Shown here: positions 2,854 to 64,000 of the stretch, one piece after another
Numbering within the stretch: position 1 is the first letter of the stretch
How the letters are laid out: every line of letters begins with the position of its first letter
Origin: Escherichia coli
Lineage (GTDB): Bacteria; Pseudomonadota; Gammaproteobacteria; Enterobacterales; Enterobacteriaceae
Assembly (NCBI RefSeq): GCF_022846255.1
Contig: NZ_AP025682.1
DNA length: 64,000 nt
Reading direction: 5' to 3' (one strand)
Program-made: the position numbers and the translations under genes
The notes under the pieces: model-generated
The model's input: the letters and a program-made list of their open reading frames with translations, nothing else
Databases searched by the model: none
Told to the model about the DNA's origin: nothing

Positions 2854-3354
2854 CTACTGGGAACGTGAGTTGCTACTACTCAATAGCTTCAACGATGAAC
2901 TTTTTTGCCATTGCGTCACGTCGCGCAACTGCTCCATTCGTTGTTGATGTTTCTCGTTTAAAACCGCTTGCTGCTCCGGCGTTAACAGGCGATACATTTG
3001 GTTGCGGACTTTTGCCATCTCAACCTGACGAGCAATTTGCTCATTCGCCATTTTTTCTGCCTGTGCGCGCACAGCGTTTTCATCAAAATTTTCTGCGGTG
3101 ACAAGGCGATGCATTGTCTCCAGTTCGCTAACATTAACAGGAGGCTGTTCGTGCCGGGCCTGTTGCATAAGATCTCGCATCTGCTGACGCTGATGTTCGG
3201 TTAAACTTATGCCGTCGAACATATGGCTCTGCGTACTGCGCTGCGTAAGTTCTTCACCCGGATGCCAGTTATCGCCTGAACCGACTTCAGCAGCGTGGCT
3301 TAATGAACTGACTGCCAGCGTTGAGGCCATGACGGCAGCGGTAACTATGCGCAT
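2854..3354 (-). CDS. cpxP: Periplasmic Cpx-pathway adaptor/inhibitor CpxP
   Basis: [24 protein letters not shown]... with two LTxxQ-like segments ([24 protein letters not shown]); divergent from cpxRA as in K-12; 166 aa from the second Met. Confidence 0.9.
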
Positions 3355-3433
3355 CATTTGCTCCCAAAATCTTTCTGTCGCGATTCAACGATAGAGAGTT
3401 TACGATTCAGGCTGCAAACATGCGTCAGGGGGT

Positions 3434-3448
3434 GTAAAACAACGTAAA
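3434..3448. promoter_or_regulatory. CpxR~P binding box in the cpxP/cpxRA divergent promoter region
   Basis: gtaaaacaacgtaaa matches the consensus GTAAA-N5-GTAAA. Confidence 0.6.
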
Positions 3449-3503
3449 GTCATGGATTAGCGACGTCTGATGACGTAATTTCTGCCTCGGAGGTATTTAA
3501 ACA

Positions 3504-4202
3504 ATGAATAAAATCCTGTTAGTTGATGATGACCGAGAGCTGACTTCCCTATTAAAGGAGCTGCTCGAGATGGAAGGCTTCAACGTGATTGTTGCCCACG
3601 ATGGGGAACAGGCGCTTGATCTTCTGGACGACAGCATTGATTTACTTTTGCTTGATGTAATGATGCCGAAGAAAAATGGTATCGACACATTAAAAGCACT
3701 TCGCCAGACACACCAGACGCCTGTCATTATGTTGACGGCGCGCGGCAGTGAACTTGATCGCGTTCTCGGGCTTGAGCTGGGCGCAGATGACTATCTCCCA
3801 AAACCGTTTAATGATCGTGAGCTGGTGGCACGTATTCGCGCGATCCTGCGCCGTTCGCACTGGAGCGAACAACAGCAAAACAACGACAACGGTTCACCGA
3901 CACTGGAAGTTGATGCCTTAAGTCTCAATCCTGGTCGCCAGGAAGCCAGCTTCGACGGGCAAACACTGGAGTTAACCGGTACTGAGTTTACCCTGCTCTA
4001 TTTGCTGGCACAGCATCTGGGTCAGGTGGTTTCCCGTGAGCATTTAAGCCAGGAAGTGCTGGGCAAGCGCCTGACGCCTTTCGACCGCGCTATCGATATG
4101 CACATTTCCAACCTGCGTCGTAAACTGCCGGATCGTAAAGATGGTCACCCGTGGTTTAAAACCCTGCGTGGTCGCGGCTATCTGATGGTTTCTGCTTCAT
4201 GA
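3504..4202 (+). CDS. cpxR: Envelope-stress response regulator CpxR (OmpR family)
   Basis: MNKILLVDDDRELTSLLKELLEMEGFNVIVAHDGEQALDLL...; receiver domain plus winged-helix; 232 aa. Confidence 0.95.
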   Translation: MNKILLVDDDRELTSLLKELLEMEGFNVIVAHDGEQALDLLDDSIDLLLLDVMMPKKNGIDTLKALRQTHQTPVIMLTARGSELDRVLGLELGADDYLPKPFNDRELVARIRAILRRSHWSEQQQNNDNGSPTLEVDALSLNPGRQEASFDGQTLELTGTEFTLLYLLAQHLGQVVSREHLSQEVLGKRLTPFDRAIDMHISNLRRKLPDRKDGHPWFKTLRGRGYLMVSAS

Positions 4203-5572
4203 TAGGCAGCTTAACCGCGCGCATCTTCGCCATCTTCTGGCTGACGCTGGCGCTGGTGTTGATGTTGGTTTTGATGTTACCCAAGCTCGATTCACGCCAG
4301 ATGACCGAGCTTCTGGATAGCGAACAGCGTCAGGGTCTGATGATTGAGCAGCATGTCGAAGCGGAGCTGGCGAACGATCCGCCCAACGATTTAATGTGGT
4401 GGCGGCGTCTGTTCCGGGCGATTGATAAGTGGGCACCGCCAGGACAACGTTTGTTATTGGTGACCACCGAAGGCCGCGTGATCGGCGCTGAACGCAGCGA
4501 AATGCAGATCATTCGTAACTTTATTGGTCAGGCCGATAACGCCGATCATCCGCAGAAGAAAAAGTATGGTCGCGTGGAACTGGTCGGTCCGTTCTCCGTG
4601 CGTGATGGCGAAGATAATTACCAACTTTATCTGATTCGTCCGGCCAGCAGTTCTCAATCCGATTTCATCAACTTACTGTTTGACCGCCCGCTATTACTGC
4701 TGATTGTCACCATGCTGGTCAGTACGCCGCTGCTGTTGTGGTTGGCCTGGAGTCTGGCAAAACCGGCGCGTAAGCTGAAAAACGCTGCCGATGAAGTTGC
4801 CCAGGGAAACTTACGCCAGCACCCGGAACTGGAAGCGGGGCCACAGGAATTCCTTGCCGCCGGTGCCAGTTTTAACCAGATGGTCACCGCGCTGGAGCGC
4901 ATGATGACCTCTCAGCAGCGTCTACTTTCTGATATCTCTCACGAACTGCGCACCCCGCTGACGCGTCTGCAACTGGGTACGGCGTTACTGCGCCGTCGTA
5001 GCGGTGAAAGCAAGGAACTGGAGCGTATTGAAACCGAAGCGCAACGTCTGGACAGCATGATCAACGATCTGTTGGTGATGTCACGTAATCAGCAGAAAAA
5101 TGCGCTGGTTAGCGAGACCATCAAAGCCAACCAGTTGTGGAGTGAAGTGCTGGATAACGCGGCGTTCGAAGCCGAGCAAATGGGCAAGTCGTTGACGGTT
5201 AACTTCCCACCTGGGCCGTGGCCGCTGTACGGCAACCCGAACGCCCTGGAAAGTGCGCTGGAAAACATTGTTCGTAATGCTCTGCGTTATTCCCATACGA
5301 AGATTGAAGTGGGCTTTGCGGTAGATAAAGACGGTATCACCATTACGGTGGACGACGATGGTCCTGGCGTTAGCCCGGAAGATCGCGAACAGATTTTCCG
5401 TCCATTCTATCGGACCGATGAAGCACGCGATCGTGAATCTGGCGGTACAGGTTTGGGGCTGGCGATTGTAGAAACCGCCATTCAGCAGCATCGTGGCTGG
5501 GTGAAGGCAGAAGACAGCCCGCTGGGCGGTTTACGGCTGGTGATTTGGTTGCCGCTGTATAAGCGGAGTTAA
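4199..5572 (+). CDS. cpxA: Envelope-stress sensor histidine kinase CpxA
   Basis: 457 aa; H-box SHELRTPLTRL, HATPase region DDDGPGV...GGTGLGLAIV; start overlaps the cpxR stop (atga). Confidence 0.95.
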   Translation: MIGSLTARIFAIFWLTLALVLMLVLMLPKLDSRQMTELLDSEQRQGLMIEQHVEAELANDPPNDLMWWRRLFRAIDKWAPPGQRLLLVTTEGRVIGAERSEMQIIRNFIGQADNADHPQKKKYGRVELVGPFSVRDGEDNYQLYLIRPASSSQSDFINLLFDRPLLLLIVTMLVSTPLLLWLAWSLAKPARKLKNAADEVAQGNLRQHPELEAGPQEFLAAGASFNQMVTALERMMTSQQRLLSDISHELRTPLTRLQLGTALLRRRSGESKELERIETEAQRLDSMINDLLVMSRNQQKNALVSETIKANQLWSEVLDNAAFEAEQMGKSLTVNFPPGPWPLYGNPNALESALENIVRNALRYSHTKIEVGFAVDKDGITITVDDDGPGVSPEDREQIFRPFYRTDEARDRESGGTGLGLAIVETAIQQHRGWVKAEDSPLGGLRLVIWLPLYKRS

Positions 5573-5595
5573 ACTCCGCATTTGTAGGCAGGATA

Positions 5596-5670
5596 AGGCG
5601 TTTACGCCGCATCCGGCATTTGAGCAGGATGCCTGATGCGACGCTGATAGCGTCTTATCAGGCCTACACT
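5596..5670. repeat. REP/BIME elements in the cpxA–yiiM intergenic region
   Basis: gccgcatccggcatttgagcaggatgcctgatgcgacgctgatagcgtcttatcaggcctac. Confidence 0.55.
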
Positions 5671-5677
5671 CCGGGGG

Positions 5678-6352
5678 TTATTTTCCCCACAAACGGCGGG
5701 AAAAATCTTCGATCTTGCCGCTAAGTCGGCGCTTTTGCATCGTTCGCGTCCAGCTTTTCGATAACCCTGCGGCGGAGAGTAAACGGTGATACTGATCGTC
5801 ATCAAACGGCATATGCCATGCGATGGCGGCAGCCTCCTGCACGGTCACATCGCTGACACGGGAAACCAACTCCAGCGGCGCATCAGCAGATACCAACCCT
5901 GGTGCAATTACGCTATACAACCACCCCACTTTACCCGTGTTTTGCATCAACTGCGCTATATCGCTGATATCAAAATGGTAATTGAGTTTATAGCAAGGTG
6001 AGCGTGGCTGGCTGACCTGAATTAATGCCTCTCCCCAGCGGAAAATATCACCAATATAAACATTACTTTCCGTCAGACCGTCGGTTGAGAGATTTTCGCC
6101 AAACGCAGGCGCAACAAACAGCTCCGCCTGTTCCGGAAATTCCCGCGCCCAGTAGAGATAATGCTCACGAGGATAATGACACAGCGCTCTGTCTGGCCCG
6201 CCGTGGATCTTTTTCTCCGCCTGTTCGTCACCTTCCAGCCCCAGGTCCGTCAGCATCAACTCACCATCAACCTGGATTTTGGCAATTGCGCTGGGTTTGC
6301 CTTCGGGATAAGCCTGAATCTTGCCTGTGTATACATCAACCGGATATCGCAT
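5678..6352 (-). CDS. yiiM: MOSC-domain protein YiiM
   Basis: ORF contains MRYPVDVYTGKIQAYPEGKPSAIAKIQVDGELMLTDLGLEGDEQAEKKIHGGPDRALCHYP...; start set at the internal Met to give 224 aa. Confidence 0.85.
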   Translation of the reverse strand: MRYPVDVYTGKIQAYPEGKPSAIAKIQVDGELMLTDLGLEGDEQAEKKIHGGPDRALCHYPREHYLYWAREFPEQAELFVAPAFGENLSTDGLTESNVYIGDIFRWGEALIQVSQPRSPCYKLNYHFDISDIAQLMQNTGKVGWLYSVIAPGLVSADAPLELVSRVSDVTVQEAAAIAWHMPFDDDQYHRLLSAAGLSKSWTRTMQKRRLSGKIEDFSRRLWGK

Positions 6353-11157: not shown

Positions 11158-14170
<3,013 letters not shown>

Positions 14171-14690
14171 ACACTGCCGGATGCGGCACAAGTGCCTTAT
14201 CCGGCCTACAGGTCAGCAACAGTTGTAGCCCTGATAAGACGCGACAGCGTCGCATCAGGCATTGATTGCCGGATGCGGCACGAGTGCCTTATCCGGCCTA
14301 CGGGTCGGCAATAGTTGTAGGCCTGATAAGACGCGACAGCGTCGCATCAGGCATTGATTGCCGGATGCGGCACGAGCGCCATATCCGGCCTACGGGTCGG
14401 CAATAGTTGTAGGCCTGATAAGACGCGACAGCGTCGCATCAGGCATTGATTGCCGGATGCGGCACGAGTGCCTTATCCGGCCTACGGGTCAGCAACAGTT
14501 GTAGGCCTGATAAGACGCGACAGCGTCGCATCAGGCATTGATTGCCGGATGCGGCACAAGTGCCTTATCCGGCCTACGGGTCGGCAATAGTTGTAGGCCT
14601 GATAAGACGCGACAGCGTCGCATCAGGCATTGATTGCCGGATGCGGCACGAGTGCCTTATCCGGCCTACGGGTCGTGCATCCGACAACAC
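14171..14690. repeat. BIME tandem array (REP pairs) filling the rhaA–rhaD intergenic region
   Basis: Unit gccggatgcggcac(a/g)agtgccttatccggcctacgggtc(a/g)gcaa(c/t)agttgtaggcctgataagacgcgacagcgtcgcatcaggcattgatt recurs with a ~93-bp period; starts at about 14177, 14270, 14363, 14450, 14543 and 14636. Confidence 0.8.
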
Positions 14691-14712: not shown

Positions 14713-15537
14713 ATGCAAAACATAACCCAGTCCTGGTTTGTCCAGGGAATGATCAAAGCCACCACCGATGCCTGGCTGAAAGGCTGGGACGAGCGCAACG
14801 GCGGCAACCTGACGCTGCGCCTGGATGACGCCGATATCGCACCATATCACGACATTTTTCACCAACAACCGCGCTATATCCCGCTCAGCCAGCCCATGCC
14901 TTTACTGGCAAATACACCGTTTATTGTCACCGGCTCGGGCAAATTCTTCCGTAACGTCCAGCTTGATCCTGCGGCTAACTTAGGCATCGTAAAAGTCGAC
15001 AGCGACGGCGCGGGCTACCACATTCTTTGGGGGTTAACCAACGAAGCCGTCCCCACTTCCGAACTTCCGGCTCACTTTCTCTCCCACTGCGAGCGCATTA
15101 AAGCCACCAACGGTAAAGATCGGGTGATCATGCACTGCCATGCCACCAACCTGATCGCCCTTACCTACGTACTGGAAAACGACACCGCGGTCTTCACTCG
15201 CCAGCTTTGGGAAGGCAGCACCGAGTGTCTGGTAGTGTTCCCGGATGGCGTTGGAATTCTGCCGTGGATGGTGCCCGGCACGGACGAAATCGGCCAGGCG
15301 ACCGCACAGGAAATGCAAAAACATTCGCTGGTGTTGTGGCCCTTCCACGGCGTCTTCGGCAGCGGTCCGACACTGGATGAAACATTCGGTTTAATCGACA
15401 CCGCAGAAAAATCAGCACAAATATTAGTGAAGGTTTATTCGATGGGCGGCATGAAACAGACCATCAGCCGTGAAGAGTTGATAGCACTCGGCCAGCGTTT
15501 CGGCGTTACACCACTCGCCAGTGCGCTGGCGCTGTAA
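14713..15537 (+). CDS. rhaD: Rhamnulose-1-phosphate aldolase
   Basis: [39 protein letters not shown]...; 274 aa from the internal Met; the listed ORF start lies inside the BIME array and is spurious. Confidence 0.9.
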
Positions 15538-15901: not shown

Positions 15902-17296
15902 TCAGAAGAAGTATTTAAAGCGAACGCGTGCGCCGTAACGGTCATCAGTATCATCACCGTGTTTTTTATCACCGTCGCTATCCAGAATGGAGTAATAAGT
16001 ACCAAGGTAAATATTAAAGTTCTCCATATCCATCACATTAGCGAACTGGTAAGACGCATGAATGGTGTGAATGGTGTACGTCCCTTCATCATCAATCCAG
16101 CAGTCGTTATCACAAACTACACCGCTGAATTCATCAATCTTATTGTGCGCGTAGATATAACCCAGCTCGAAACGTTTCCACAGCGCGTTAATCCCGGCAG
16201 TGAAATCTTTCTCATTATTAGCATCTAAATAGGCGGTATTAAGATTAACCACGACGCCATTTTCCGGATCCGTTTTCAGGCCATTCCAGGTCATGCTCAT
16301 ACCATAGCCGGTACGATCGGACTGATCGACAAAATTACCCTTGCTATCGGTATAACCATAAGCATTATTTACCATATTCGCTTCCATCGCTGCGGAAACG
16401 GTGAATTCTTCCGTCGGCGACCAGGCAATTACCGGACGCAGATAAGCAACATTTTTCTGCTGTTCCATATCGCGTCCATGATAATTACCGTCGTTATATA
16501 AAGATGTTCCATCTTCCAGTAACGTGTTTAATTCAAAATACCAGTTATCGAGTTGTTTGCTGACGAGGAAATTACCGCCAGCGTTAGAACGTCCGCGGCC
16601 CTCTTTCATCATATAGATATAACCGCTGCCATCGTCATAAAGATCGTTCGCAGTATTACCGGAATGTTCAACAAAGGTATCCTGACTCAGCGGGAACATA
16701 TCGTAGGCTTCAAAACGGCCTACTTTGACCTTCCAGTCGTTTTCTTTGCCAAAGAAGAAAACCGCATCATCGATATTTACTGAACCGTGCATATCCCCCA
16801 GCGGTTGTACGGAGAACCCAGCGAAATAGCCATTATCCAGTTTTCGCATACCATCAAAACCTAACAGAATACGACCATTGAGATTCCACTGTTCATTAGT
16901 GGGATCGCTATTCACATCAGCGTTGGTCATTGCCAGCAGGCCATGATTACTTTCCGCATCCATATTAAATTCTACGTCACCGTAGATTTTTAAATCGCCA
17001 TACCCTGAAAGCAGGAGATTAGGCGGGGTGGCGTTTTTCTTCTCTGACTCCGTCGTTGATTGACCGTTTACCGGCGTGTTGCCCTGTGCGATCTTAATTT
17101 CGCGGATCTCGGCGGCTTGTTGTGTCTGAAGCTGTTTAACCTGCCCCTCTGCTTTTGCTGCCCGCATTTCTGCCGCTTCCAGGCGTTCTTCCAGCAATGC
17201 CATGCGTTGTTCCAGCGTTAAATGCTGTGTTTTTGCCATACCGGTACTACATGCCAATAATAAACCGATGGCTAAAGATAATGTCGATTTTTTCAT
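15902..17296 (-). CDS. Outer-membrane carbohydrate porin with N-terminal coiled-coil (LamB/ScrY-like); not in K-12 at this locus
   Basis: Signal peptide MKKSTLSLAIGLLLACSTGMA, then a coiled-coil (LEQRMALLEERLEAAEMRAAKAEGQVKQLQTQQAAEIREIK), then a beta-rich body ending in aromatic ...RFKYFF typical of OM beta-barrels; lower-GC gene. Confidence 0.65.
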   Translation of the reverse strand: MKKSTLSLAIGLLLACSTGMAKTQHLTLEQRMALLEERLEAAEMRAAKAEGQVKQLQTQQAAEIREIKIAQGNTPVNGQSTTESEKKNATPPNLLLSGYGDLKIYGDVEFNMDAESNHGLLAMTNADVNSDPTNEQWNLNGRILLGFDGMRKLDNGYFAGFSVQPLGDMHGSVNIDDAVFFFGKENDWKVKVGRFEAYDMFPLSQDTFVEHSGNTANDLYDDGSGYIYMMKEGRGRSNAGGNFLVSKQLDNWYFELNTLLEDGTSLYNDGNYHGRDMEQQKNVAYLRPVIAWSPTEEFTVSAAMEANMVNNAYGYTDSKGNFVDQSDRTGYGMSMTWNGLKTDPENGVVVNLNTAYLDANNEKDFTAGINALWKRFELGYIYAHNKIDEFSGVVCDNDCWIDDEGTYTIHTIHASYQFANVMDMENFNIYLGTYYSILDSDGDKKHGDDTDDRYGARVRFKYFF

Positions 17297-17649: not shown

Positions 17650-18204
17650 TTACGACTTCGTGACATATCCGTGCTCATCACAAACCCGCCCCGCGATTAC
17701 AATTAACTGAAATATTTCATCGACCATTTCGTTGTAATCGCATAACGCTCGTGGAAATGAGTCTTCGGCCATCCAGCTTGAGTTTGCGTCCTGAAGTTGC
17801 TCTTTATCCCAGTCAGAGTACGGGACTTTATCTCTGATGCGGCGAACGTATTTTTTAGCCTCGAGTTGATACTGGCCTGCCGAATTAATAAACGAGAAAC
17901 TCATGCCGCTTTTATCCGCTTCTTTGGCTTGCGCCACCAGCGTTTCCAGTTCAGACACTTTCTTCATTGCCGCTTCTGCATCTAACTTATCTTGCGATAT
18001 CAGGTTATTAATTTGTTTCGCTGAAATCATGACTGCCAGAGAGTAGTAGTGGAATGTTTTCCCTTTCGCAAACGCATCGTCTTTATAATTTTCCTGGGTG
18101 TAATATTTATCCATTTCGTTAATGGTATTACCCAACGCTACGGCAGCATCAATATAACTCACCGCCACGCCATCAATAGGTTGCAGCGCAGGCGTTAACG
18201 CCAC
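17650..18204 (-). CDS. Hypothetical protein (~184 aa, GTG start); sits where K-12 has yiiG but has no signal peptide
   Basis: ORF MALTPALQPIDGVAVSYIDAAVALGNTINEMDKYY...; in-frame stop 27 codons upstream leaves no room for a longer N-terminus; function unknown. Confidence 0.4.
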   Translation of the reverse strand: MALTPALQPIDGVAVSYIDAAVALGNTINEMDKYYTQENYKDDAFAKGKTFHYYSLAVMISAKQINNLISQDKLDAEAAMKKVSELETLVAQAKEADKSGMSFSFINSAGQYQLEAKKYVRRIRDKVPYSDWDKEQLQDANSSWMAEDSFPRALCDYNEMVDEIFQLIVIAGRVCDEHGYVTKS

Positions 18205-18291
18205 TACACGCGTTTTGTTTATGAGAAAATAACAAAATTCACGAAATGAATAAGTCCTGTAATTTAATATATATCGCAGGACTTATTTTAA

Positions 18292-19125
18292 TTAATTGCT
18301 CAAACGCTGCGGATGGGTATAAACCGTTGCCCGACCCGGTTTACAAAAGCCCACCAGCGTCAGATTACAGCGCTCAGCCACTTCTACAGCAAGTGTGGTC
18401 GCGGCAGACACCGCAAACAAAATCTCTACGCCGCACATCGCCGACTTTTGCACCATTTCATAACTGGCACGGCTGGAAACCAGCACCGCACCTTGCTGCC
18501 AGCTTTCCCCTTCTTGTGACCGGCGGCCTAACAGTTTGTCCAGCGCCACATGGCGACCCACGTCTTCATGCCCGCCGACCAGTTCGCCAGATGGCAACAT
18601 CCATGCAGCGGCGTGAGTACAACCAGTCAGTTGCCCCACTGGCTGGAAATCATTGAGATGACGTAATGCATCATCCAGTTTGTTGAGATCAAACATCTGG
18701 GTGAACGGCAGCGGCTGCACCGGTTTACCGATATCGTTAAGCTGTTCTACACCGCATACGCCACAGCCCGTACGTCCCGCCAGCGCCCGGCGGCGCTCCT
18801 TCAACCCCATAAAGCGGCGGCTGGAAAGCTCAATTTGTACTTCCAGGCCATTACAGGAAGGAACGACATCCATGCCGAAGATATCGCGCGGGCTTTCGAT
18901 AATTCCTTCGGAAAGCGAAAAACCGAGCGCAAAGTACTCAAGGTCTTTGGGCGACGCCATCATCACCACATGCGAAATACCGTTGTAGACCAGCGCAACG
19001 GGAACTTCTTCCGCCACCTCATCTAACCGTGGGTGTTGTAAATCATCACGCCGCCATAACTCAATTTGACGAACACCTGTGATATTTGTCACATTTTCGA
19101 TTTCTTTTTGCTGTGTTTTTTTCAC
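18292..19125 (-). CDS. fdhD: Formate dehydrogenase sulfurtransferase/accessory protein FdhD
   Basis: [59 protein letters not shown]...; 277 aa; divergent from fdoG. Confidence 0.9.
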
Positions 19126-19318
19126 TTTCTCTTAACCAGATAAGAACACACACACCAACATTATGGTATTCTGTTACAAACCCTTCCTGGATGGAGGGAA
19201 ATTGAGCCAATTCTGGACCTTTGCGGCCCCTTCCGCAAAGAAAAATAACTCCCACTCCCTGCACACTCAGCAAGCGAATGTAAATGGGACGTGACAATGT
19301 CGAAACAAGGAGCAATCC

Positions 19319-22300
19319 ATGCAGGTCAGCAGAAGGCAGTTCTTTAAGATCTGCGCTGGCGGTATGGCAGGCACCACGGCGGCGGCACTGGGTTTTGCAC
19401 CCAGCGTAGCACTCGCGGAAACCCGGCAGTATAAACTGCTGCGCACCCGCGAAACCCGTAATACCTGCACCTATTGTTCCGTAGGCTGTGGGCTGTTGAT
19501 GTACAGCCTCGGTGACGGAGCAAAAAACGCCAAAGCATCTATCTTCCATATCGAAGGTGACCCGGATCACCCGGTCAACCGCGGAGCACTTTGTCCGAAA
19601 GGCGCTGGCCTGGTGGATTTCATCCACTCCGAAAGCCGTCTGAAGTTTCCGGAATACCGTGCGCCAGGTTCTGATAAATGGCAGCAAATCAGTTGGGAAG
19701 AGGCGTTTGATCGCATCGCCAAACTGATGAAAGAAGACCGCGATGCAAACTACATTGCGCAAAACGCCGAAGGCGTGACTGTTAACCGCTGGCTCTCCAC
19801 CGGGATGCTGTGTGCTTCCGCGTCGAGTAACGAAACCGGCTATTTAACGCAAAAATTCTCCCGCGCGCTGGGTATGCTCGCGGTCGACAACCAGGCGCGT
19901 GTCTGACACGGACCAACGGTAGCAAGTCTTGCTCCAACATTTGGTCGCGGTGCGATGACCAACCACTGGGTCGACATCAAGAATGCCAACCTCGTCGTGG
20001 TGATGGGCGGTAACGCCGCTGAAGCTCACCCGGTCGGGTTCCGCTGGGCGATGGAAGCCAAAATTCACAACGGCGCGAAGCTGATTGTGATCGATCCTCG
20101 CTTTACGCGTACGGCGGCGGTGGCTGACTACTATGCCCCTATCCGTTCCGGTACTGACATTGCTTTCCTGTCAGGCGTATTGCTGTACCTGCTGAACAAT
20201 GAAAAATTCAACCGCGAATACACCGAAGCCTATACCAACGCCAGCCTGATCGTGCGTGAGGATTACGGCTTTGAAGATGGCCTGTTCACCGGCTACGACG
20301 CGGAAAAACGCAAGTACGATAAGTCCACCTGGACTTACGAACTGGACGAAAACGGCTTCGCCAAACGCGATACTACCCTGCAACATCCACGTTGCGTGTG
20401 GAACTTGCTGAAACAGCACGTTTCCCGCTACACGCCAGATGTGGTTGAAAACATCTGTGGTACGCCAAAAGACGCATTCCTGAAAGTCTGCGAATACATC
20501 GCCGAAACCAGTGCTCACGATAAAACAGCGTCGTTCCTCTACGCCCTCGGCTGGACGCAACACTCCATCGGTGCGCAGAACATCCGTACGATGGCGATGA
20601 TCCAGTTGCTGCTCGGCAATATGGGGATGGCTGGCGGCGGCGTTAACGCCCTGCGCGGTCACTCCAATATTCAGGGGCTGACCGACCTGGGGCTGCTGTC
20701 GCAGAGTCTGCCAGGTTACATGACGTTGCCAAGCGAGAAGCAGACCGATCTGCAAACTTACCTCGCTGCCAACACGCCAAAACCACTGCTGGAAGGCCAG
20801 GTCAACTACTGGGGCAACTACCCGAAATTCTTCGTCTCAATGATGAAGGCATTCTTTGGTGATAAAGCGACGGCGGAAAATAGCTGGGGCTTTGACTGGT
20901 TGCCGAAGTGGGATAAAGGCTACGACGTCCTGCAATACTTCGAGATGATGAAAGAGGGCAAGGTCAATGGCTATATCTGCCAGGGCTTTAACCCTGTTGC
21001 CTCATTCCCGAACAAAAACAAAGTGATCGGCTGTCTGTCGAAGCTGAAATTCCTCGTAACTATCGACCCGCTGAACACTGAAACCTCTAACTTCTGGCAG
21101 AACCACGGTGAGCTGAACGAAGTTGACTCGTCGAAGATCCAGACCGAAGTGTTCCGTCTGCCATCGACCTGCTTCGCGGAAGAGAACGGTTCAATCGTTA
21201 ACTCTGGTCGCTGGTTGCAATGGCACTGGAAAGGTGCGGACGCCCCGGGGATTGCGCTGACTGATGGCGAGATCCTCTCCGGTATCTTCCTGCGCTTGCG
21301 CAAGATGTATGCCGAACAGGGTGGTGCGAACCCGGACCAGGTGCTGAACATGACCTGGAACTACGCCATTCCGCATGAGCCATCTTCAGAAGAAGTGGCA
21401 ATGGAGAGCAACGGCAAAGCGCTGGCCGATATTACCGACCCGGCAACCGGTGCGGTTATCGTCAAGAAAGGCCAACAACTTAGCTCGTTCGCCCAACTGC
21501 GCGATGACGGTACAACCTCCTGTGGCTGCTGGATTTTCGCCGGTAGCTGGACGCCGGAAGGCAACCAGATGGCGCGTCGTGATAACGCCGATCCGTCTGG
21601 CCTCGGTAACACGCTGGGCTGGGCATGGGCATGGCCGCTTAACCGCCGCATTCTGTATAACCGCGCCTCCGCAGATCCGCAGGGTAACCCATGGGATCCG
21701 AAGCGTCAGTTGCTGAAATGGGACGGCACTAAGTGGACCGGCTGGGATATTCCGGATTACAGCGCAGCGCCTCCGGGCAGCGGCGTAGGGCCGTTTATCA
21801 TGCAGCAGGAAGGCATGGGACGTCTGTTTGCCCTCGATAAGATGGCGGAAGGTCCGTTCCCGGAACACTACGAGCCGTTTGAAACGCCGCTGGGAACTAA
21901 CCCGCTGCATCCAAACGTTATCTCGAACCCGGCGGCGCGTATCTTTAAAGACGACGCCGAAGCATTGGGTAAAGCCGATAAGTTCCCGTATGTCGGAACC
22001 ACCTATCGTCTGACCGAGCACTTCCACTACTGGACCAAACACGCGCTGTTGAATGCGATTTTGCAACCAGAGCAGTTTGTGGAAATCGGGGAGTCGCTGG
22101 CGAATAAACTTGGCATTGCCCAGGGCGATACTGTGAAAGTCTCCTCCAACCGTGGCTATATCAAAGCCAAAGCGGTAGTGACCAAACGTATTCGCACGCT
22201 GAAAGCAAACGGCAAAGATATCGATACCATCGGTATTCCGATTCACTGGGGCTATGAAGGTGTTGCGAAAAAAGGCTTTATTGCCAATACGTTGACGCCA

Positions 22301-22369
22301 TTCGTCGGTGATGCGAACACGCAGACGCCGGAGTTTAAGTCCTTCCTTGTGAATGTGGAAAAGGTGTAA
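19319..22369 (+). CDS. fdoG: Formate dehydrogenase-O catalytic subunit (selenoprotein; in-frame TGA at 19904-19906 read as selenocysteine)
   Basis: ORFs 19319..19906 and 19955..22369 are in the same frame, separated only by TGA; Tat signal MQVSRRQFFKICAGGMAGTTAAALG; Fe-S motif CTYCSVGC; total 1016 codons. Confidence 0.9.
19907..19955 (+). promoter_or_regulatory. Putative SECIS stem-loop directing Sec insertion at the fdoG UGA
   Basis: Immediately 3' of the in-frame TGA: cacggaccaacggtagcaagtcttgctccaacatttggtcgcg contains complementary segments (agcaagtcttgct); folding not computed. Confidence 0.5.
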
Positions 22370-22381
22370 CGGAGACGACAT

Positions 22382-23284
22382 ATGGCTTATCAATCGCAAG
22401 ATATCATTCGTCGTTCCGCGACTAACGGTCTGACCCCCGCGCCTCAGGCGCGGGACTTCCAGGAAGAAGTGGCGAAACTCATCGACGTTACCACCTGTAT
22501 CGGCTGTAAAGCCTGTCAGGTGGCGTGTTCAGAGTGGAACGACATTCGCGATACCGTCGGCAATAACATTGGGGTGTACGACAACCCCAATGATTTAAGT
22601 GCCAAATCGTGGACGGTGATGCGATTCTCGGAAGTGGAGCAGAACGACAAACTGGAATGGCTGATCCGCAAAGACGGCTGTATGCACTGTTCCGATCCAG
22701 GCTGCCTGAAAGCGTGCCCGGCGGAAGGGGCAATTATTCAGTATGCCAACGGTATCGTCGACTTCCAGTCCGAGCAGTGCATCGGCTGCGGTTATTGCAT
22801 TGCGGGCTGTCCGTTCGACATTCCGCGCCTCAACCCGGAAGACAACCGCGTCTACAAATGTACGTTGTGCGTTGACCGCGTGGTGGTTGGGCAAGAACCG
22901 GCCTGCGTGAAGACCTGCCCAACGGGCGCGATTCACTTCGGTACGAAAGAGTCGATGAAAACGCTGGCGAGCGAGCGCGTGGCGGAGCTGAAAACCCGTG
23001 GTTACGACAATGCGGGTTTGTACGACCCGGCAGGCGTCGGTGGTACACATGTTATGTACGTGCTGCACCATGCTGACAAGCCAAATCTGTATCATGGCTT
23101 GCCGGAGAACCCGGAAATCAGCGAAACCGTGAAATTCTGGAAAGGCATCTGGAAACCGCTCGCAGCTGTTGGCTTTGCGGCTACCTTCGCAGCCAGTATC
23201 TTCCACTACGTGGGTGTCGGTCCGAACCGTGCGGATGAGGAAGAGAATAATCTGCACGAAGAGAAAGACGAGGAGCGCAAATGA
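22382..23284 (+). CDS. fdoH: Formate dehydrogenase-O Fe-S subunit
   Basis: 300 aa; several CxxCxxCxxxCP ferredoxin motifs ([41 protein letters not shown]) and a C-terminal TM anchor. Confidence 0.95.
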
Positions 23285-23916
23285 AACGACGTGACACCAT
23301 CGTGCGCTACACCGCGCCGGAACGTATCAACCACTGGATCACCGCCTTCTGCTTCATCCTGGCGGCGGTGAGCGGGCTGGGCTTTTTGTTCCCGTCCTTC
23401 AACTGGTTGATGCAAATCATGGGCACACCGCAGCTGGCGCGCATTCTGCACCCGTTTGTCGGCGTGGTTATGTTTGCCTCGTTCATCATCATGTTTTTCC
23501 GTTACTGGCATCACAACCTAATCAATCGGGATGATATCTTTTGGGCGAAGAATATTCGTAAGATCGTCGTCAACGAGGAAGTAGGTGACACCGGGCGTTA
23601 TAACTTCGGTCAGAAATGCGTTTTCTGGGCGGCGATTATTTTCCTGGTTCTGCTGCTGGTGAGCGGCGTGATTATCTGGCGTCCTTATTTTGCGCCTGCT
23701 TTCTCAATCCCGGTGATCCGATTCGCGTTAATGCTGCATTCATTTGCCGCAGTGGCGTTAATTGTGGTTATCATGGTGCATATCTACGCCGCCCTTTGGG
23801 TGAAAGGCACGATTACCGCCATGGTGGAAGGATGGGTGACCAGCGCCTGGGCGAAGAAACATCACCCGCGCTGGTACCGTGAGGTCCGCAAGACAACGGA
23901 AAAGAAAGCTGAATGA
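23281..23916 (+). CDS. fdoI: Formate dehydrogenase-O cytochrome b556 subunit
   Basis: 211 aa; multi-TM; overlaps the fdoH stop (atga). Confidence 0.95.
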
Positions 23917-24842
23917 GTATTCGCATAATCCCGCAAGATGAGCTGGGTTCGAGCGAGAAACGTACGGCGGATATGATTCCGCCGTTATTGTTCCCTCGGC
24001 TCAAGAATTTATACAACCGCCGCGCCGAGCGTCTGCGCGAGCTGGCAGAAAATAATCCGCTGGGTGATTACCTGCGCTTTGCTGCGCTTATCGCCCACGC
24101 CCAGGAAGTGGTGCTGTACGACCATCCGCTGGAAATGGATTTGACCGCACGCATTAAAGAAGCCAGCGCACAAGGCAAGCCCCCGCTGGATATTCACGTT
24201 CTGCCGCGTGATAAGCACTGGCAAAAGCTGCTGATGGCGCTGATTGCTGAGCTGAAACCTGAAATGAGCGGCCCGGCGCTGGCAGTGATTGAGAATCTGG
24301 AGAAGGCATCGACTCAGGAGCTGGAAGATATGGCCAGCGCACTGTTTGCCTCTGATTTCTCGTCCGTCAGCAGCGATAAAGCGCCGTTTATCTGGGCTGC
24401 GCTGTCGCTCTATTGGGCGCAGATGGCTAATCTGATCCCCGGCAAAGCCCGCGCTGAATACGGCGAACAACGTCAATATTGCCCGGTATGTGGCTCTATG
24501 CCGGTGTCCAGCATGGTGCAAATTGGCACCACTCAGGGTCTGCGTTACCTGCACTGCAACCTGTGTGAAACTGAATGGCACGTAGTGCGCGTAAAATGCA
24601 GCAACTGTGAACAGAGCGGCAAACTGCATTACTGGTCGCTGGATGACGAACAGGCCGCGATTAAAGCCGAAAGCTGCGATGACTGCGGCACTTACCTGAA
24701 GATTCTTTATCAGGAAAAAGAACCGAAAGTTGAAGCCGTGGCAGATGACCTCGCCTCTCTGGTACTGGACGCGCGAATGGAGCAAGAAGGCTATGCCCGT
24801 AGTTCCATTAACCCGTTCCTGTTTCCGGGTGAAGGGGAGTAA
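23913..24842 (+). CDS. fdhE: Formate dehydrogenase formation protein FdhE
   Basis: 309 aa; paired CxxC motifs ([33 protein letters not shown]). Confidence 0.95.
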
Positions 24843-24930
24843 TCTCTGACGTTTTCCGGGTGGCGCTGGTCGCCCGGATTACAGCTCATAGGGTGTGACG
24901 ACACCTGCTATTCCCGCAAAATCTCTCGTA

Positions 24931-24975
24931 TTTCGCGAGGCGTTTTCCAGATATGATGTAACAGTTGCAGTTATT
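24931..24975. repeat. Copy A of a ~45-bp intergenic repeat
   Basis: tttcgcgaggcgttttccagatatgatgtaacagttgcagttatt; 36/45 identical to copy B; its 5' half matches copy C. Confidence 0.6.
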
Positions 24976-25057
24976 ATAAGTTCAAGTAAAACAGCCTTGT
25001 ATTAATACCAGAATAAGGGCATCTGGTTTTTTATATTCATGAATAAAAAAACTTTTG

Positions 25058-25276
25058 TCATTCCTTATGCTGCTTACATAGTTCTTCAACACCAACTGCC
25101 TCGTCCCTTTGCCTGCCGCCTTTTGCCTTACGCACCGGAAATTGCTGCCGCTCCAGATATTGCTCTACCGCTTCGCGTAAAATTGCAGAGCGCGAAACCT
25201 TACGCCATCCCCGAAGCTTGTTCAGCCGTTTAATTGCCTCTTCTGATAAATGAAGAAAAACCGTATTCATCGCCAT
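25058..25276 (-). CDS. yiiE: Ribbon-helix-helix (CopG-family) small regulator; I take it to be YiiE, but YiiE versus YiiF cannot be settled from memory
   Basis: MAMNTVFLHLSEEAIKRLNKLRGWRKVSRSAILREAVEQYLERQQ...; RHH beta-strand/helix pattern; 72 aa from the internal Met. Confidence 0.65.
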   Translation of the reverse strand: MAMNTVFLHLSEEAIKRLNKLRGWRKVSRSAILREAVEQYLERQQFPVRKAKGGRQRDEAVGVEELCKQHKE

Positions 25277-25370
25277 TACCACCACCTTACATATATTACT
25301 CATTAATGTATGTGCGAAAATTACGCCGGAAAGTTAATTAACGAAAGCGGATTTTTTCATATTGTTTTGT

Positions 25371-25415
25371 TTTTGCGAGACGGCATCCAAAGATAATGTA
25401 ACAGTTTCAGTTATT
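25371..25415. repeat. Copy B of the ~45-bp intergenic repeat
   Basis: ttttgcgagacggcatccaaagataatgtaacagtttcagttatt. Confidence 0.6.
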
Positions 25416-25671
25416 TCAATTGTTACTCAAAAATGGTTTATTACTTTTAATTAAGCGGGGGCACATCTACAGGAAAGAAACAACAAATAATAAGGATGAA
25501 TTATGGATGCTATAAATATTTTATATTCAAGAATATTTTTTGATTGGGTCTTCATTTGCTTCATCAGGATGGTGTACCCGAAAAAGTCAGCAGCTTTACC
25601 GCACCAGGGTTTAAGGTGAAATCTACCATTCATAACGACCGGTCAGTGCCGCACCAACCGGTCTTTAATTG

Positions 25672-25950
25672 TTAGTAGTAGTAAATTTGTGGATAACAGT
25701 CCGGGAACCAGACGATTCCTTCCGGATCATCCCCCTGCATTACCCGATGACATTGGCGTCGATCATCTGCGCGACGGCGAAGCGTAGTATAGAGCCGCTT
25801 CCATTCATGATCGCCCGGTGTACTGTAGTTTACCCAACAATCCATTGAAGGGTGACGCCATTTACCTGTAAGTGTTGGGATCCCTGAATGCTTATGCGGC
25901 TTCGCTTTACCATTACGATCCCTATCTTTACGCGTATTAAACGTGGACAT
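25672..25950 (-). CDS. Hypothetical small protein (92 aa), His/Cys/Trp-rich; possibly the 3' part of a frameshifted gene
   Basis: ORF MSTFNTRKDRDRNGKAKPHKHSGIPTLTGKWRHPSMDCWVNYSTPGDHEWKRLY...; AT-rich context; no recognisable family. Confidence 0.3.
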   Translation of the reverse strand: MSTFNTRKDRDRNGKAKPHKHSGIPTLTGKWRHPSMDCWVNYSTPGDHEWKRLYTTLRRRADDRRQCHRVMQGDDPEGIVWFPDCYPQIYYY

Positions 25951-26011
25951 TTTTAGTCTCCTGTTAAGAGTTCTAAAAATGTGCTTCCTTAAAATAGTTC
26001 ATCATTTTCCC

Positions 26012-45643: not shown

Positions 45644-45795
45644 AACTTTGCCTCAGGCATTAGAAATAGCGCGTTATTGTACACGGATTAATCGCACTAC
45701 AAAACAGGATCACAAACATCCTCCGCAAACAAGTATTGCAGAGTCCCTTTGTGATCGCTTTCACGGAGCATAAAAAGGGTTATCCAAAGGTCATT

Positions 45796-45932
45796 GCACC
45801 AATATGGTGCTTAATGTTCCCATTGAAGCACTATATTGGTGCAACATTCACATCATGGTGCAGCCCTTTTGCACGATGTTAAGCATGATAACGCCTTTTA
45901 GGGGCAATTTAAAAGTTGGCACAGATTTCGCT
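45796..45932 (+). promoter_or_regulatory. glnA control region: NtrC enhancer sites and sigma-54 promoter glnAp2
   Basis: NtrC-type palindromes gcaccaatatggtgc (45796-45812) and gcactatattggtgca (45828-45843); sigma-54 -24/-12 element ttGGCACagatttCGCTt at 45916-45932. Confidence 0.7.
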
Positions 45933-46015
45933 TTATCTTTTTTACGGCGACACGGCCCATTTAATTGCAGATTTCGTTACCACGACGACAATGACCAATC
46001 CAGGAGAGTTAAAGT

Positions 46016-47425
46016 ATGTCCGCTGAACACGTACTGACGATGCTGAACGAGCACGAAGTGAAGTTTGTTGATTTGCGCTTCACCGATACCAAAGGTAAAG
46101 AACAGCACGTCACTATCCCTGCTCATCAGGTGAATGCCGAATTCTTCGAAGAAGGCAAAATGTTTGACGGCTCCTCGATTGGCGGCTGGAAAGGCATTAA
46201 CGAATCCGATATGGTGCTGATGCCAGACGCATCCACCGCAGTGATTGACCCGTTCTTCGCCGATTCTACCCTGATTATCCGTTGCGACATCCTTGAACCT
46301 GGCACCCTGCAAGGCTATGACCGTGACCCGCGCTCTATTGCGAAGCGCGCTGAAGATTACCTGCGTTCTACTGGCATTGCCGACACCGTACTGTTCGGGC
46401 CAGAACCTGAATTCTTCCTGTTCGATGACATCCGTTTCGGATCGTCTATCTCCGGTTCCCACGTTGCTATCGACGATATCGAAGGTGCATGGAACTCCTC
46501 CACCCAATATGAAGGTGGTAACAAAGGTCACCGTCCGGCAGTGAAAGGCGGTTACTTCCCGGTTCCGCCGGTAGACTCAGCTCAGGATATCCGTTCTGAA
46601 ATGTGCCTGGTGATGGAACAGATGGGTCTGGTGGTTGAAGCTCATCACCACGAAGTCGCTACCGCAGGTCAGAACGAAGTGGCTACCCGCTTCAATACCA
46701 TGACCAAAAAAGCTGACGAAATTCAGATCTACAAATATGTCGTGCACAACGTGGCGCACCGTTTCGGTAAGACCGCGACCTTTATGCCAAAACCGATGTT
46801 CGGTGATAACGGTTCCGGTATGCACTGCCACATGTCGCTGTCTAAAAACGGCGTCAACCTGTTTGCTGGCGACAAATACGCAGGTCTGTCTGAGCAGGCA
46901 CTGTACTACATTGGCGGCGTAATCAAACACGCTAAAGCGATTAACGCCCTGGCAAACCCGACCACCAACTCTTACAAGCGTCTGGTCCCGGGCTACGAAG
47001 CACCGGTAATGCTGGCTTACTCTGCGCGTAACCGTTCTGCGTCTATCCGTATTCCGGTGGTTTCTTCTCCGAAAGCACGTCGTATCGAAGTACGTTTCCC
47101 GGACCCGGCGGCTAACCCGTACCTGTGCTTTGCTGCCCTGCTGATGGCCGGTCTTGATGGCATCAAGAACAAGATCCATCCGGGCGAAGCCATGGACAAA
47201 AACCTGTATGACCTGCCGCCAGAAGAAGCGAAAGAGATCCCACAGGTTGCAGGCTCTCTGGAAGAAGCACTGAACGAACTGGATCTGGACCGCGAGTTCC
47301 TGAAAGCTGGTGGCGTGTTCACGGATGAAGCGATCGATGCGTACATCGCTCTGCGTCGCGAAGAAGATGACCGCGTGCGTATGACTCCGCATCCGGTAGA
47401 GTTTGAGCTGTACTACAGCGTCTAA
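46016..47425 (+). CDS. glnA: Glutamine synthetase
   Basis: 469 aa; [60 protein letters not shown]... Confidence 0.95.
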
Positions 47426-47485
47426 TAGTTGAAGTTGTACTACCCGGCGCAACAACGCCGGGATTTAGTTGCCGTGGAAACTTTC

Positions 47486-50306: not shown

Positions 50307-50458
<152 letters not shown>

Positions 50459-52595: not shown

Positions 52596-52666
52596 AATGG
52601 TTCGTCTTTTAGCCGTTTTATTCAGTATAGATTTGCGGCGGAATCTAACAGAAAGCAAGCAAAGAA

Positions 52667-52906
52667 AAAAGGCGACAGATTACTCTGTCGCCTTTTTTCC
52701 TGACTCATAACCCTTAACGGGTCTTACAATCCTTGCAGGCCGCCAACACACCCTGTTTTTCCATTAGCCGGAACAATCCGTGTTGATTCCATTTCCATTT
52801 AATTACGTCTCCGGACGTTTATCTTCCTGACAATCCTCTGTCTTCGCCTCCTGGCGCTCCTGACCCTCATCCTGAGTCATTGTTCCTGTTAGCGTCCTCG
52901 CTCTAT
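52667..52906 (-). ncRNA. csrC: CsrC, CsrA-sequestering sRNA
   Basis: Intergenic yihI–engB, the known csrC locus; minus strand carries many GGA motifs (plus-strand TCC: atccttgc, tctccgga, cttcctga, atcctctg, ctcctggc, ctcctgac, atcctgag, gttcctgt); ends at terminator ggcgacagagtaatctgtcgcc + T-run; 5' end approximate. Confidence 0.6.
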
Positions 52907-53934: not shown

Positions 53935-54043
53935 TAAAAAACGCCCCAGTCATTACTGACTGGGGCGGCTAAAATATTCAGCCAAATCCGATTACGTGAA
54001 GTAAAAGGTCTGAAAGATAGAACATCTTACCTCTGTACCCTAC
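53935..54043 (-). ncRNA. spf: Spot 42 sRNA
   Basis: Minus-strand sequence GTAGGGTACAGAGGTAAGATGTTCTATCTTTCAGACCTTTTACTTCACGTAATCGGATTTGGCTGAATATTTTAGCCGCCCCAGTCAGTAATGACTGGGGCGTTTTTTA matches Spot 42 as recalled, including its terminator; location between polA and engB. Confidence 0.85.
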
Positions 54044-54190
54044 GCGACTAACTTTACTCTTTTTTGTTCAGTTCAGAAAGCATTTTTTGTAATTTTTTTT
54101 CAGTTGTTGCATAGGAATTTCTAATAGCCATCACAAAACGTGACAGCTTATGTTGCTTACTTACGAAAAAAGGGCATGTTCAGGCGAATC

Positions 54191-63139: not shown

Positions 63140-63259
63140 ATGCCTGGCAGTTCCCTACTCTCGCATGGGGAGGCCCCACACTACCATCGGCGCTACGGCG
63201 TTTCACTTCTGAGTTCGGCATGGGGTCAGGTGGGACCACCGCGCTACGGCCGCCAGGCA
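63140..63259 (-). rRNA. rrfA: 5S ribosomal RNA (probably rrfA given the adjacent mobB)
   Basis: Reverse complement reads TGCCTGGCGGCCGTAGCGCGGTGGTCCCACCTGACCCCATGCCGAACTCAGAAGTGAAACGCCGTAGCGCCGATGGTAGTGTGGGGCCTCCCCATGCGAGAGTAGGGAACTGCCAGGCAT; 120 nt. Confidence 0.9.
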
Positions 63260-63357
63260 AATTCTGTTTTATCAACACGTCTCGTTATGACCTGTCGATT
63301 TAATCTGTATCAGGCTGAAAATCTTCTCTCTATCCGCCAAAACATCTTCGGCGTTGT

Positions 63358-64000
<643 letters not shown>

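Follow-up and report, generated by a model that had tools for sequence, protein, structure and literature searches.

An intact Escherichia coli fdoG gene with an in-frame UGA selenocysteine codon and a bacterial SECIS element

Results

Organization of the fdo locus

The stretch of Escherichia coli DNA analyzed here, referred to as the window, is 64 kb long, and all positions are counted from its first letter. The genes and features relevant to formate dehydrogenase were the following.

18292 to 19125, minus strand: fdhD, divergent, the sulfurtransferase needed for formate dehydrogenase activity (TIGR00129, 338.8 bits; 96.9% nucleotide identity to K-12 fdhD).
19319 to 22369, plus strand: fdoG, catalytic (alpha) subunit of formate dehydrogenase-O, 1016 codons plus TAA with selenocysteine (Sec) at codon 196 (from the translation, the K-12 identity, TIGR01553 and Pfam).
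19319 to 19417, plus strand: twin-arginine (Tat) signal region, MQVSRRQFFKICAGG...ALA, of presumed extent (S-R-R-x-F-F-K motif recognized by eye in the translation).
19901 to 19959, plus strand: bacterial SECIS, in the extent of Rfam SECIS_3 (from cmscan, the pair list, a position check and the minimum free energy (MFE) hairpin).
19904 to 19906, plus strand: UGA selenocysteine codon (codon 196), in frame, with the same codon number as in K-12 fdoG and fdnG and aligned with X196 (Sec) of 1KQF chain A.
19907 to 19949 (Rfam structure) or 19911 to 19946 (MFE fold), plus strand: the SECIS hairpin proper.
About 19918 to 19935, plus strand: predicted apical SelB-binding part of the SECIS, with bulged U 19920 and loop G and U 19926-19927.
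22382 to 23284, plus strand: fdoH, iron-sulfur (beta) subunit (TIGR01582, 478.7 bits; 100% amino acid identity to K-12 FdoH).
23281 to 23916, plus strand: fdoI, cytochrome b556 (gamma) subunit (NF007924, 453.3 bits; 100% amino acid identity to K-12 FdoI).
23913 to 24842, plus strand: fdhE, formate dehydrogenase accessory protein (NF002925, 604.1 bits; 99.0% amino acid identity to K-12 FdhE).

The gene order, with fdhD divergent from fdoG-fdoH-fdoI-fdhE, is that of the K-12 fdo locus and is also found in strain RM14723, while the K-12 fdn locus differs in having fdnGHI between yddG and yddM. By its neighbours fdhD, fdoH, fdoI and fdhE, the locus is that of FDH-O and not of FDH-N.

At its N-terminus, the translated FdoG carries the twin-arginine motif SRRQFFK, and the region aligned with residues 1-33 of FdnG in 1KQF. 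The Pfam TAT_signal model gave no score on the FdoG N-terminus, and the extent of the signal is presumed from what is generally known of FdnG and FdoG.

A single in-frame TGA interrupts the fdoG reading frame

Translation of 19319-22369 gave 1017 codons ending in TAA, with one internal stop only, the TGA at codon 196, whose frame is that of the start codon ATG 19319 ((19904-19319)%3 = 0). In the list of open reading frames (ORFs) this single frame appears as two plus-strand entries, 19319..19906 (195 aa) and 19955..22369 (804 aa), the second of which is listed from its first ATG (19955) by convention only. No stop occurs in the intervening 48 bases (19907-19954), which code for HGPTVASLAPTFGRGA, so that the fdoG frame is broken by the TGA alone. 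An earlier note on this DNA had described two ORFs in one frame separated only by TGA. The common frame was borne out, and the TGA is indeed the sole interruption of the biological frame; the ORFs as listed, however, are separated by the TGA together with the 48 open bases.

The TGA occupies codon 196 in the fdoG of the window as well as in K-12 fdoG and K-12 fdnG, and codon 140 in fdhF, each of these K-12 genes having one internal TGA. The best match of the protein in the PDB (phmmer) was FdnG of 1KQF (E = 1.9e-271), and codon 196 fell opposite X196, a non-standard residue in that structure, inside the identical sequence VDNQARV-X-HGPTVASLAPTFGRGAMTNHW; X196 is the selenocysteine of formate dehydrogenase-N. 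The alignment proposed by the earlier note as a check on its call thus puts the TGA at the Sec position of FdoG (codon 196), opposite Sec196 of FdnG in 1KQF. Furthermore, the family model TIGR01553 aligned the two halves of fdoG to its profile positions 1-194 and 196-1009, so that a single profile position remains, that of the TGA. The Pfam domains found above their cut-offs were Molybdop_Fe4S4 (PF04879), Molybdopterin (PF00384) and Molydop_binding (PF01568), the set expected of a molybdopterin oxidoreductase.

The TGA is followed by a SECIS_3 element

A cmscan search of 18000-26000 with all Rfam families identified SECIS_3 (RF01989) at 19901-19959, with 84.3 bits against a gathering threshold of 63 (E = 1.8e-19) and covering the model from 1 to 59 of its 59 positions. 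The match begins 3 bases upstream of the TGA, so that UGA 19904-19906 falls on model positions 4-6, and no other SECIS reached gathering threshold anywhere in the 64 kb of the window. Membership in SECIS_2, the fdhF-type family, was considered and rejected, the score being 28.1 bits against a gathering threshold of 70.

In the MFE fold, an apical helix AGCAA/UUGCU closes a GUC loop, and U19920 lies unpaired between this helix and the GG/CC helix below it. Counted from the U of the UGA, positions 17, 23 and 24 are U, G and U, in the window and in K-12 fdhF alike; the bulged U and the loop G-U of the fdhF SECIS are contacts of SelB. Two lower-stem pairs of the Rfam structure are non-canonical, A-C 19908/19948 and A-G 19912/19944, and both are also present in K-12 fdoG and fdnG. 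Over the 66 bases compared (from 6 before the TGA to 57 after it), the window was identical to K-12 fdoG and differed from K-12 fdnG by 1 base, upstream of the TGA; likewise, codons 190-220 showed zero differences from K-12 fdoG.

The folding energy was less telling. The 42 bases 3' of the TGA reached -11.9 kcal/mol (z = -1.8 against shuffled sequences, with 4.2% of the shuffles equally stable), and a 71-nt stretch at the SECIS was indistinguishable from shuffles (z = 0.26). Thermodynamic stability by itself is weak evidence for a SECIS and separates the element poorly from shuffles, which is why we place the case on the covariance model, the spacing of the determinants and the identity to K-12. 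On these grounds the hairpin is a true SECIS_3 member and not a look-alike, all of its testable defining features being present. The stem-loop-capable segment that the earlier note had seen after the TGA and called a putative SECIS is accordingly a full-length SECIS_3 match above gathering threshold, with U17, G23 and U24 spaced as in fdhF. Together with the alignment to Sec196 of FdnG and the same codon in K-12 fdoG, this agrees with its statement that TGA 19904-19906 is the known Sec codon of FdoG.

Predicted decoding of UGA196

The 100% identity to K-12 fdoG over the 66 bases, along with the literature, suggests that the element binds SelB and directs Sec insertion. From general knowledge of the E. 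coli sel system, the hairpin 19907-19949 would bind SelB carrying Sec-tRNA(Sec) and GTP, to which it would offer the bulged U at +17 and the loop G and U at +23/+24. The ternary complex, tethered in this way to the ribosome with UGA in the A site, would outcompete release factor 2 (RF2), and the inserted Sec196 would become a ligand of the molybdenum in the bis-MGD cofactor at the active site. By way of the twin-arginine motif, FdoGH would be exported through Tat in folded form to the periplasmic side of the membrane.

No tRNA genes, including that of tRNA-Sec (selC), were found in the 64-kb window, nor does the window hold selA, selB or selD. In K-12 the sel genes are located elsewhere on the chromosome, and we assume that the Sec decoding machinery is present in this strain.

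It could be argued that in this strain ribosomes mostly stop at UGA196, or decode it with a near-cognate tRNA for Trp or Cys, and insert Sec only in a minority of cases. In favor of this explanation, the decoding of UGA through SelB has a low efficiency in E. coli, at a few percent read-through in reporter studies, and the 195-aa truncated product is a real by-product; the window, moreover, shows none of the sel genes. However, such a reading bears on how efficiently the UGA is recoded and does not offer a different mechanism. The SECIS is intact, without any difference from its K-12 counterpart, and the activity of Fdh-N/O in E. coli needs selC, being lost in a selC mutant (PMC3160892). We therefore consider it very improbable. 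Selenocysteine is present in all three E. coli Fdh enzymes (PMC3160892), and when an E. coli genome was freed of all its other TGAs, those inside fdhF, fdoG and fdnG were spared on purpose as codons for Sec (PMC11903333).

Both sides of the TGA are under purifying selection

The fdoG of the window and K-12 fdoG (b3894, NP_418330.1) are of equal length (3051 nt) and share 99.7% amino acid and 97.5% nucleotide identity. Synonymous changes numbered 72 nucleotides, against 3 codons with a non-synonymous change; before the TGA the counts were 5/0, and after it 67/3. Such counts mark strong purifying selection on the sequence beyond the TGA, which a true stop would silence.

At the level of the species, a megablast search with 19100-22500 found the region in 5,425 of the 5,426 complete E. 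coli genomes, the best identities being 99.4%. The 80 bases around the TGA were likewise present in 5425/5426 of these genomes. The median genome had them at two places, corresponding to the paralogues fdoG and fdnG, and for 5321 of the 5433 records the identity at the best place was 99% or higher.

These data bear on the possibility that fdoG is a pseudogene generated by a nonsense mutation, the two ORFs being its decaying remnants. A plain ORF list does give two separate ORFs, and split products of 195 aa and 804 aa have been deposited in public databases. Against it, K-12 fdoG and fdnG also have TGA as their codon 196, fdhF has its TGA (codon 140) at the equivalent place in the active site, a curated SECIS model matches right after the TGA, and the TGA stretch is conserved in all but one of the 5426 complete E. 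coli genomes. Since the 72 synonymous and 3 non-synonymous changes are spread on both sides of the TGA, with the 820 downstream codons clearly under purifying selection, a pseudogene is ruled out; we assign it a probability below even that of predominant termination or near-cognate reading. The earlier assertion that the gene is not a pseudogene is in line with the excess of synonymous changes downstream of the TGA (67 against 3) and with the retention of the TGA in both K-12 paralogues.

The gene is fdoG and not its paralogue fdnG

RefSeq/PGAP labels the fdoG orthologue 'fdnG, formate dehydrogenase-N subunit alpha', and read literally this would make the gene the nitrate-inducible formate dehydrogenase-N. 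The label is given to the orthologous CDS in every E. coli genome listed, the best NCBIfam model, TIGR01553, bears the same name, and fdoG and fdnG hardly differ in their SECIS regions. The rest of the gene and its surroundings nevertheless point to fdoG. The protein is 99.7% identical to K-12 FdoG and only 76.8% to K-12 FdnG (b1474), the downstream genes encode products 100% identical to K-12 FdoH and FdoI, and the gamma subunit scored 453.3 bits with the FdoI-type model NF007924 against 243.6 bits with the FdnI-type model NF007558. In addition, fdhD and fdhE flank the operon as in K-12 fdo, yddG and yddM are not among the neighbours, and the median of two query-matching places per E. coli genome corresponds to two paralogues. 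PGAP takes its label from the name of TIGR01553, a model spanning both paralogues. An identity as fdnG is thus no more credible than a pseudogene, and the designation fdoG given by the earlier note was upheld by the protein identities and by the neighbours fdhD, fdoH, fdoI and fdhE. The gene is a genuine member of the FdoG orthologue group, all of the testable defining features of FdoG being present.

Annotation of the gene in public records

The earlier note had also warned that automated callers would truncate or split the gene. This proved correct for naive ORF calling and for many deposited assemblies, but not for RefSeq/PGAP and the curated K-12 record, which give one CDS (3051 bases in PGAP). 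An exact-sequence look-up in the public protein collection found both the 195-aa and the 804-aa fragment, with 1000 contigs or more for each. The 804-aa fragment has GenBank accessions, and some of the deposited N-terminal fragments are wrongly named.

Other stop-codon junctions and the fdoG leader

The window was swept for further recoding candidates, defined as a single stop with at least 150 open codons on each side. Seven junctions were found, five of them with TAA, one of these being the terminal TAA of fdoG itself (fdoG/fdoH). Besides that of fdoG, only one junction had a TGA, on the minus strand at about 46579. No SECIS matched at this junction, which lies antisense to a 469-aa ORF on the plus strand (46016-47425), probably glnA by its size and map position. 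Being antisense to this ORF and without a SECIS, the junction was rejected as a recoding site and attributed to shadow ORFs.

In the 5' leader of fdoG (19150-19348), the Rfam model of the FdoG-1 5' UTR thermometer (FdoG1_thermometer) scored 31.9 bits against a gathering threshold of 50 (E = 5e-5), a good alignment being confined to the region of the Shine-Dalgarno sequence and the start of the coding sequence. The MFE fold of the leader pairs the Shine-Dalgarno sequence AAGGAGC with codons 9-11, with a stability no better than that of shuffles (z = 0.11). Because the match is below gathering threshold and the fold does no better than shuffles, we do not claim an RNA thermometer in the fdoG leader; that translation initiation of E. 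coli fdoG might be temperature-gated, besides the Sec recoding, appears unlikely. The TGA and its SECIS leave no room for a novel reading, and the leader is the only loose end nearby.

Discussion

We conclude, with a probability of about 0.98, that 19319-22369 is an intact E. coli fdoG, encoding a periplasmic, Tat-exported molybdo-selenoprotein, in which UGA 19904-19906 is read as Sec by means of a SECIS. Direct support comes from the in-frame UGA, the SECIS match, the homology to FdnG with positional equivalence to its Sec196, the operon context and the purifying selection on both halves of the gene. Nothing substantive counts against the Sec reading of the TGA.

The closest known system is fdoG of K-12, which resembles the gene of the window in its length, its TGA codon, the 66-base stretch around the TGA and the flanking fdhD, fdoH, fdoI and fdhE. 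The 77 nucleotide and 3 amino acid differences between them (S337T, V417I, T483A) are ordinary at the strain level, and the fdoG of RM14723 and similar strains is closer still (99.4% nucleotide identity). FdnG, the protein of 1KQF, is a paralogue with the same Tat-type N-terminus and the same domain order. Its gene, however, lies in a yddG-fdnGHI-yddM arrangement without fdhD and fdhE as neighbours. Expression of fdn is induced by nitrate and anaerobiosis, while that of fdo is low and constitutive.

The SECIS of fdhF, encoding formate dehydrogenase-H, is the prototype of these elements (Rfam SECIS_2-like). As in the window, its hairpin lies directly 3' of the UGA and presents U+17 and G23/U24, and the two genes also have in common the Sec-His (U-H) dipeptide and the following GP. 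In contrast, the stem sequences of the fdhF element are unlike those of the window, and its loop is a GGUC tetraloop, whereas that of the window can be drawn as an A-U pair with a GUC triloop or as an AGUCU pentaloop. Moreover, the TGA of fdhF is at codon 140, and its product is cytoplasmic and has no Tat signal, unlike FdoG.

The Sec codon and SECIS of fdoG are already known and belong to textbook biology, selenocysteine in E. coli FDH-O having been established since the early 1990s. The TGA of fdoG thus opens no biological question. The value of the finding lies in annotation: the locus should be represented as one CDS of 1016 codons with a Sec translation exception at codon 196, rather than as two ORFs or a pseudogene.

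Distribution of the fdoG Stretch and Fold of Its 5′ Leader

The stretch spanning positions 19100-22500, used as query against complete E. coli genomes (n = 5,426), lacked any match in only one of them; in nine records the best place was just 60-80% identical to the query, and plasmid records hold seven matching places.

In the leader of fdoG, the Rfam scan returned a match to the FdoG-1 5′ UTR thermometer (RF02778) at 19150-19348 (+), with 31.9 bits (E = 5e-5), which is below the family's gathering score of 50, and the good alignment was limited to the area around the start of translation, from the Shine-Dalgarno sequence through the start codon into the opening codons. In the minimum free energy fold of 19270-19350, GUUCUUU in codons 9-11 is paired with the Shine-Dalgarno AAGGAGC; compared with shuffled sequences, this fold showed no gain in stability (z = 0.11).

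A Minus-Strand TGA Junction Near 46579

Two long open frames on the minus strand, 46577-47455 and 45977-46531, are joined by one in-frame TGA near 46579. Both run antisense to a 469-aa plus-strand ORF (46016-47425), which by size and map position is probably glnA. As no match to a SECIS, the hairpin directing selenocysteine recoding, was found at this junction and the frames are antisense to 46016-47425, a second recoding site was rejected and the frames were taken as shadow ORFs.

Neighboring Genes, Repeats and Structured RNAs

Two ORFs lie between rhaM and fdhD:

15902-17296 (-), ORF of 464 aa
17650-18204 (-), ORF of 184 aa

Their sizes are those of a "carbohydrate porin" and an N-terminally truncated DUF3829 (yiiG) pseudogene in strain RM14723, a match made on size and order alone. 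In K-12 a full yiiG adjoins fdhD. Five evenly spaced matches to the REP-type naRNA4/CssrE family, with a 92-base period, occupy 14228-14666 (-), between a rhaA-sized ORF ending at 14170 and a rhaD-sized ORF ending at 15537. In RM14723, the closest strain among the matches listed, the rhaA-rhaD spacing is only 92 bases, and the length of the REP-type array therefore differs among strains. Further REP-type matches and the structured RNAs scoring at or above the Rfam gathering score are as follows:

5587-5664 (+), naRNA4/CssrE
50328-50399 (-), naRNA4/CssrE
45725-45832 (-), ES222 sRNA
52653-52906 (-), CsrC sRNA
53935-54053 (-), Spot 42 sRNA
63142-64000 (-), 3′ end of an rRNA operon, with 5S and the last ~640 bases of 23S

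The 23S portion is incomplete since the end of the window cuts the operon. CsrC, Spot 42, ES222 and the rRNA operon are consistent with the E. coli chromosome region carrying the fdo locus.

Naming of fdoG Orthologues and of Their Fragments

In every E. coli RefSeq genome listed, the label that PGAP gives to the fdoG orthologue is "fdnG: formate dehydrogenase-N subunit alpha" (for example at 3220-6270 of RefSeq locus L001), while the genes adjoining this "fdnG" are named fdoH and fdoI. The label is a paralogue mislabel, whose source is the name of the family model TIGR01553. The 195-aa fragment ahead of the selenocysteine TGA (19319-19903) belongs to a cluster (P0003, P0004) whose Cronobacter malonaticus and Hafnia alvei members have "sulfate ABC transporter substrate-binding protein" as their NCBI/UniRef name, evidently a misannotation of a split selenocysteine-gene fragment that has been propagated.
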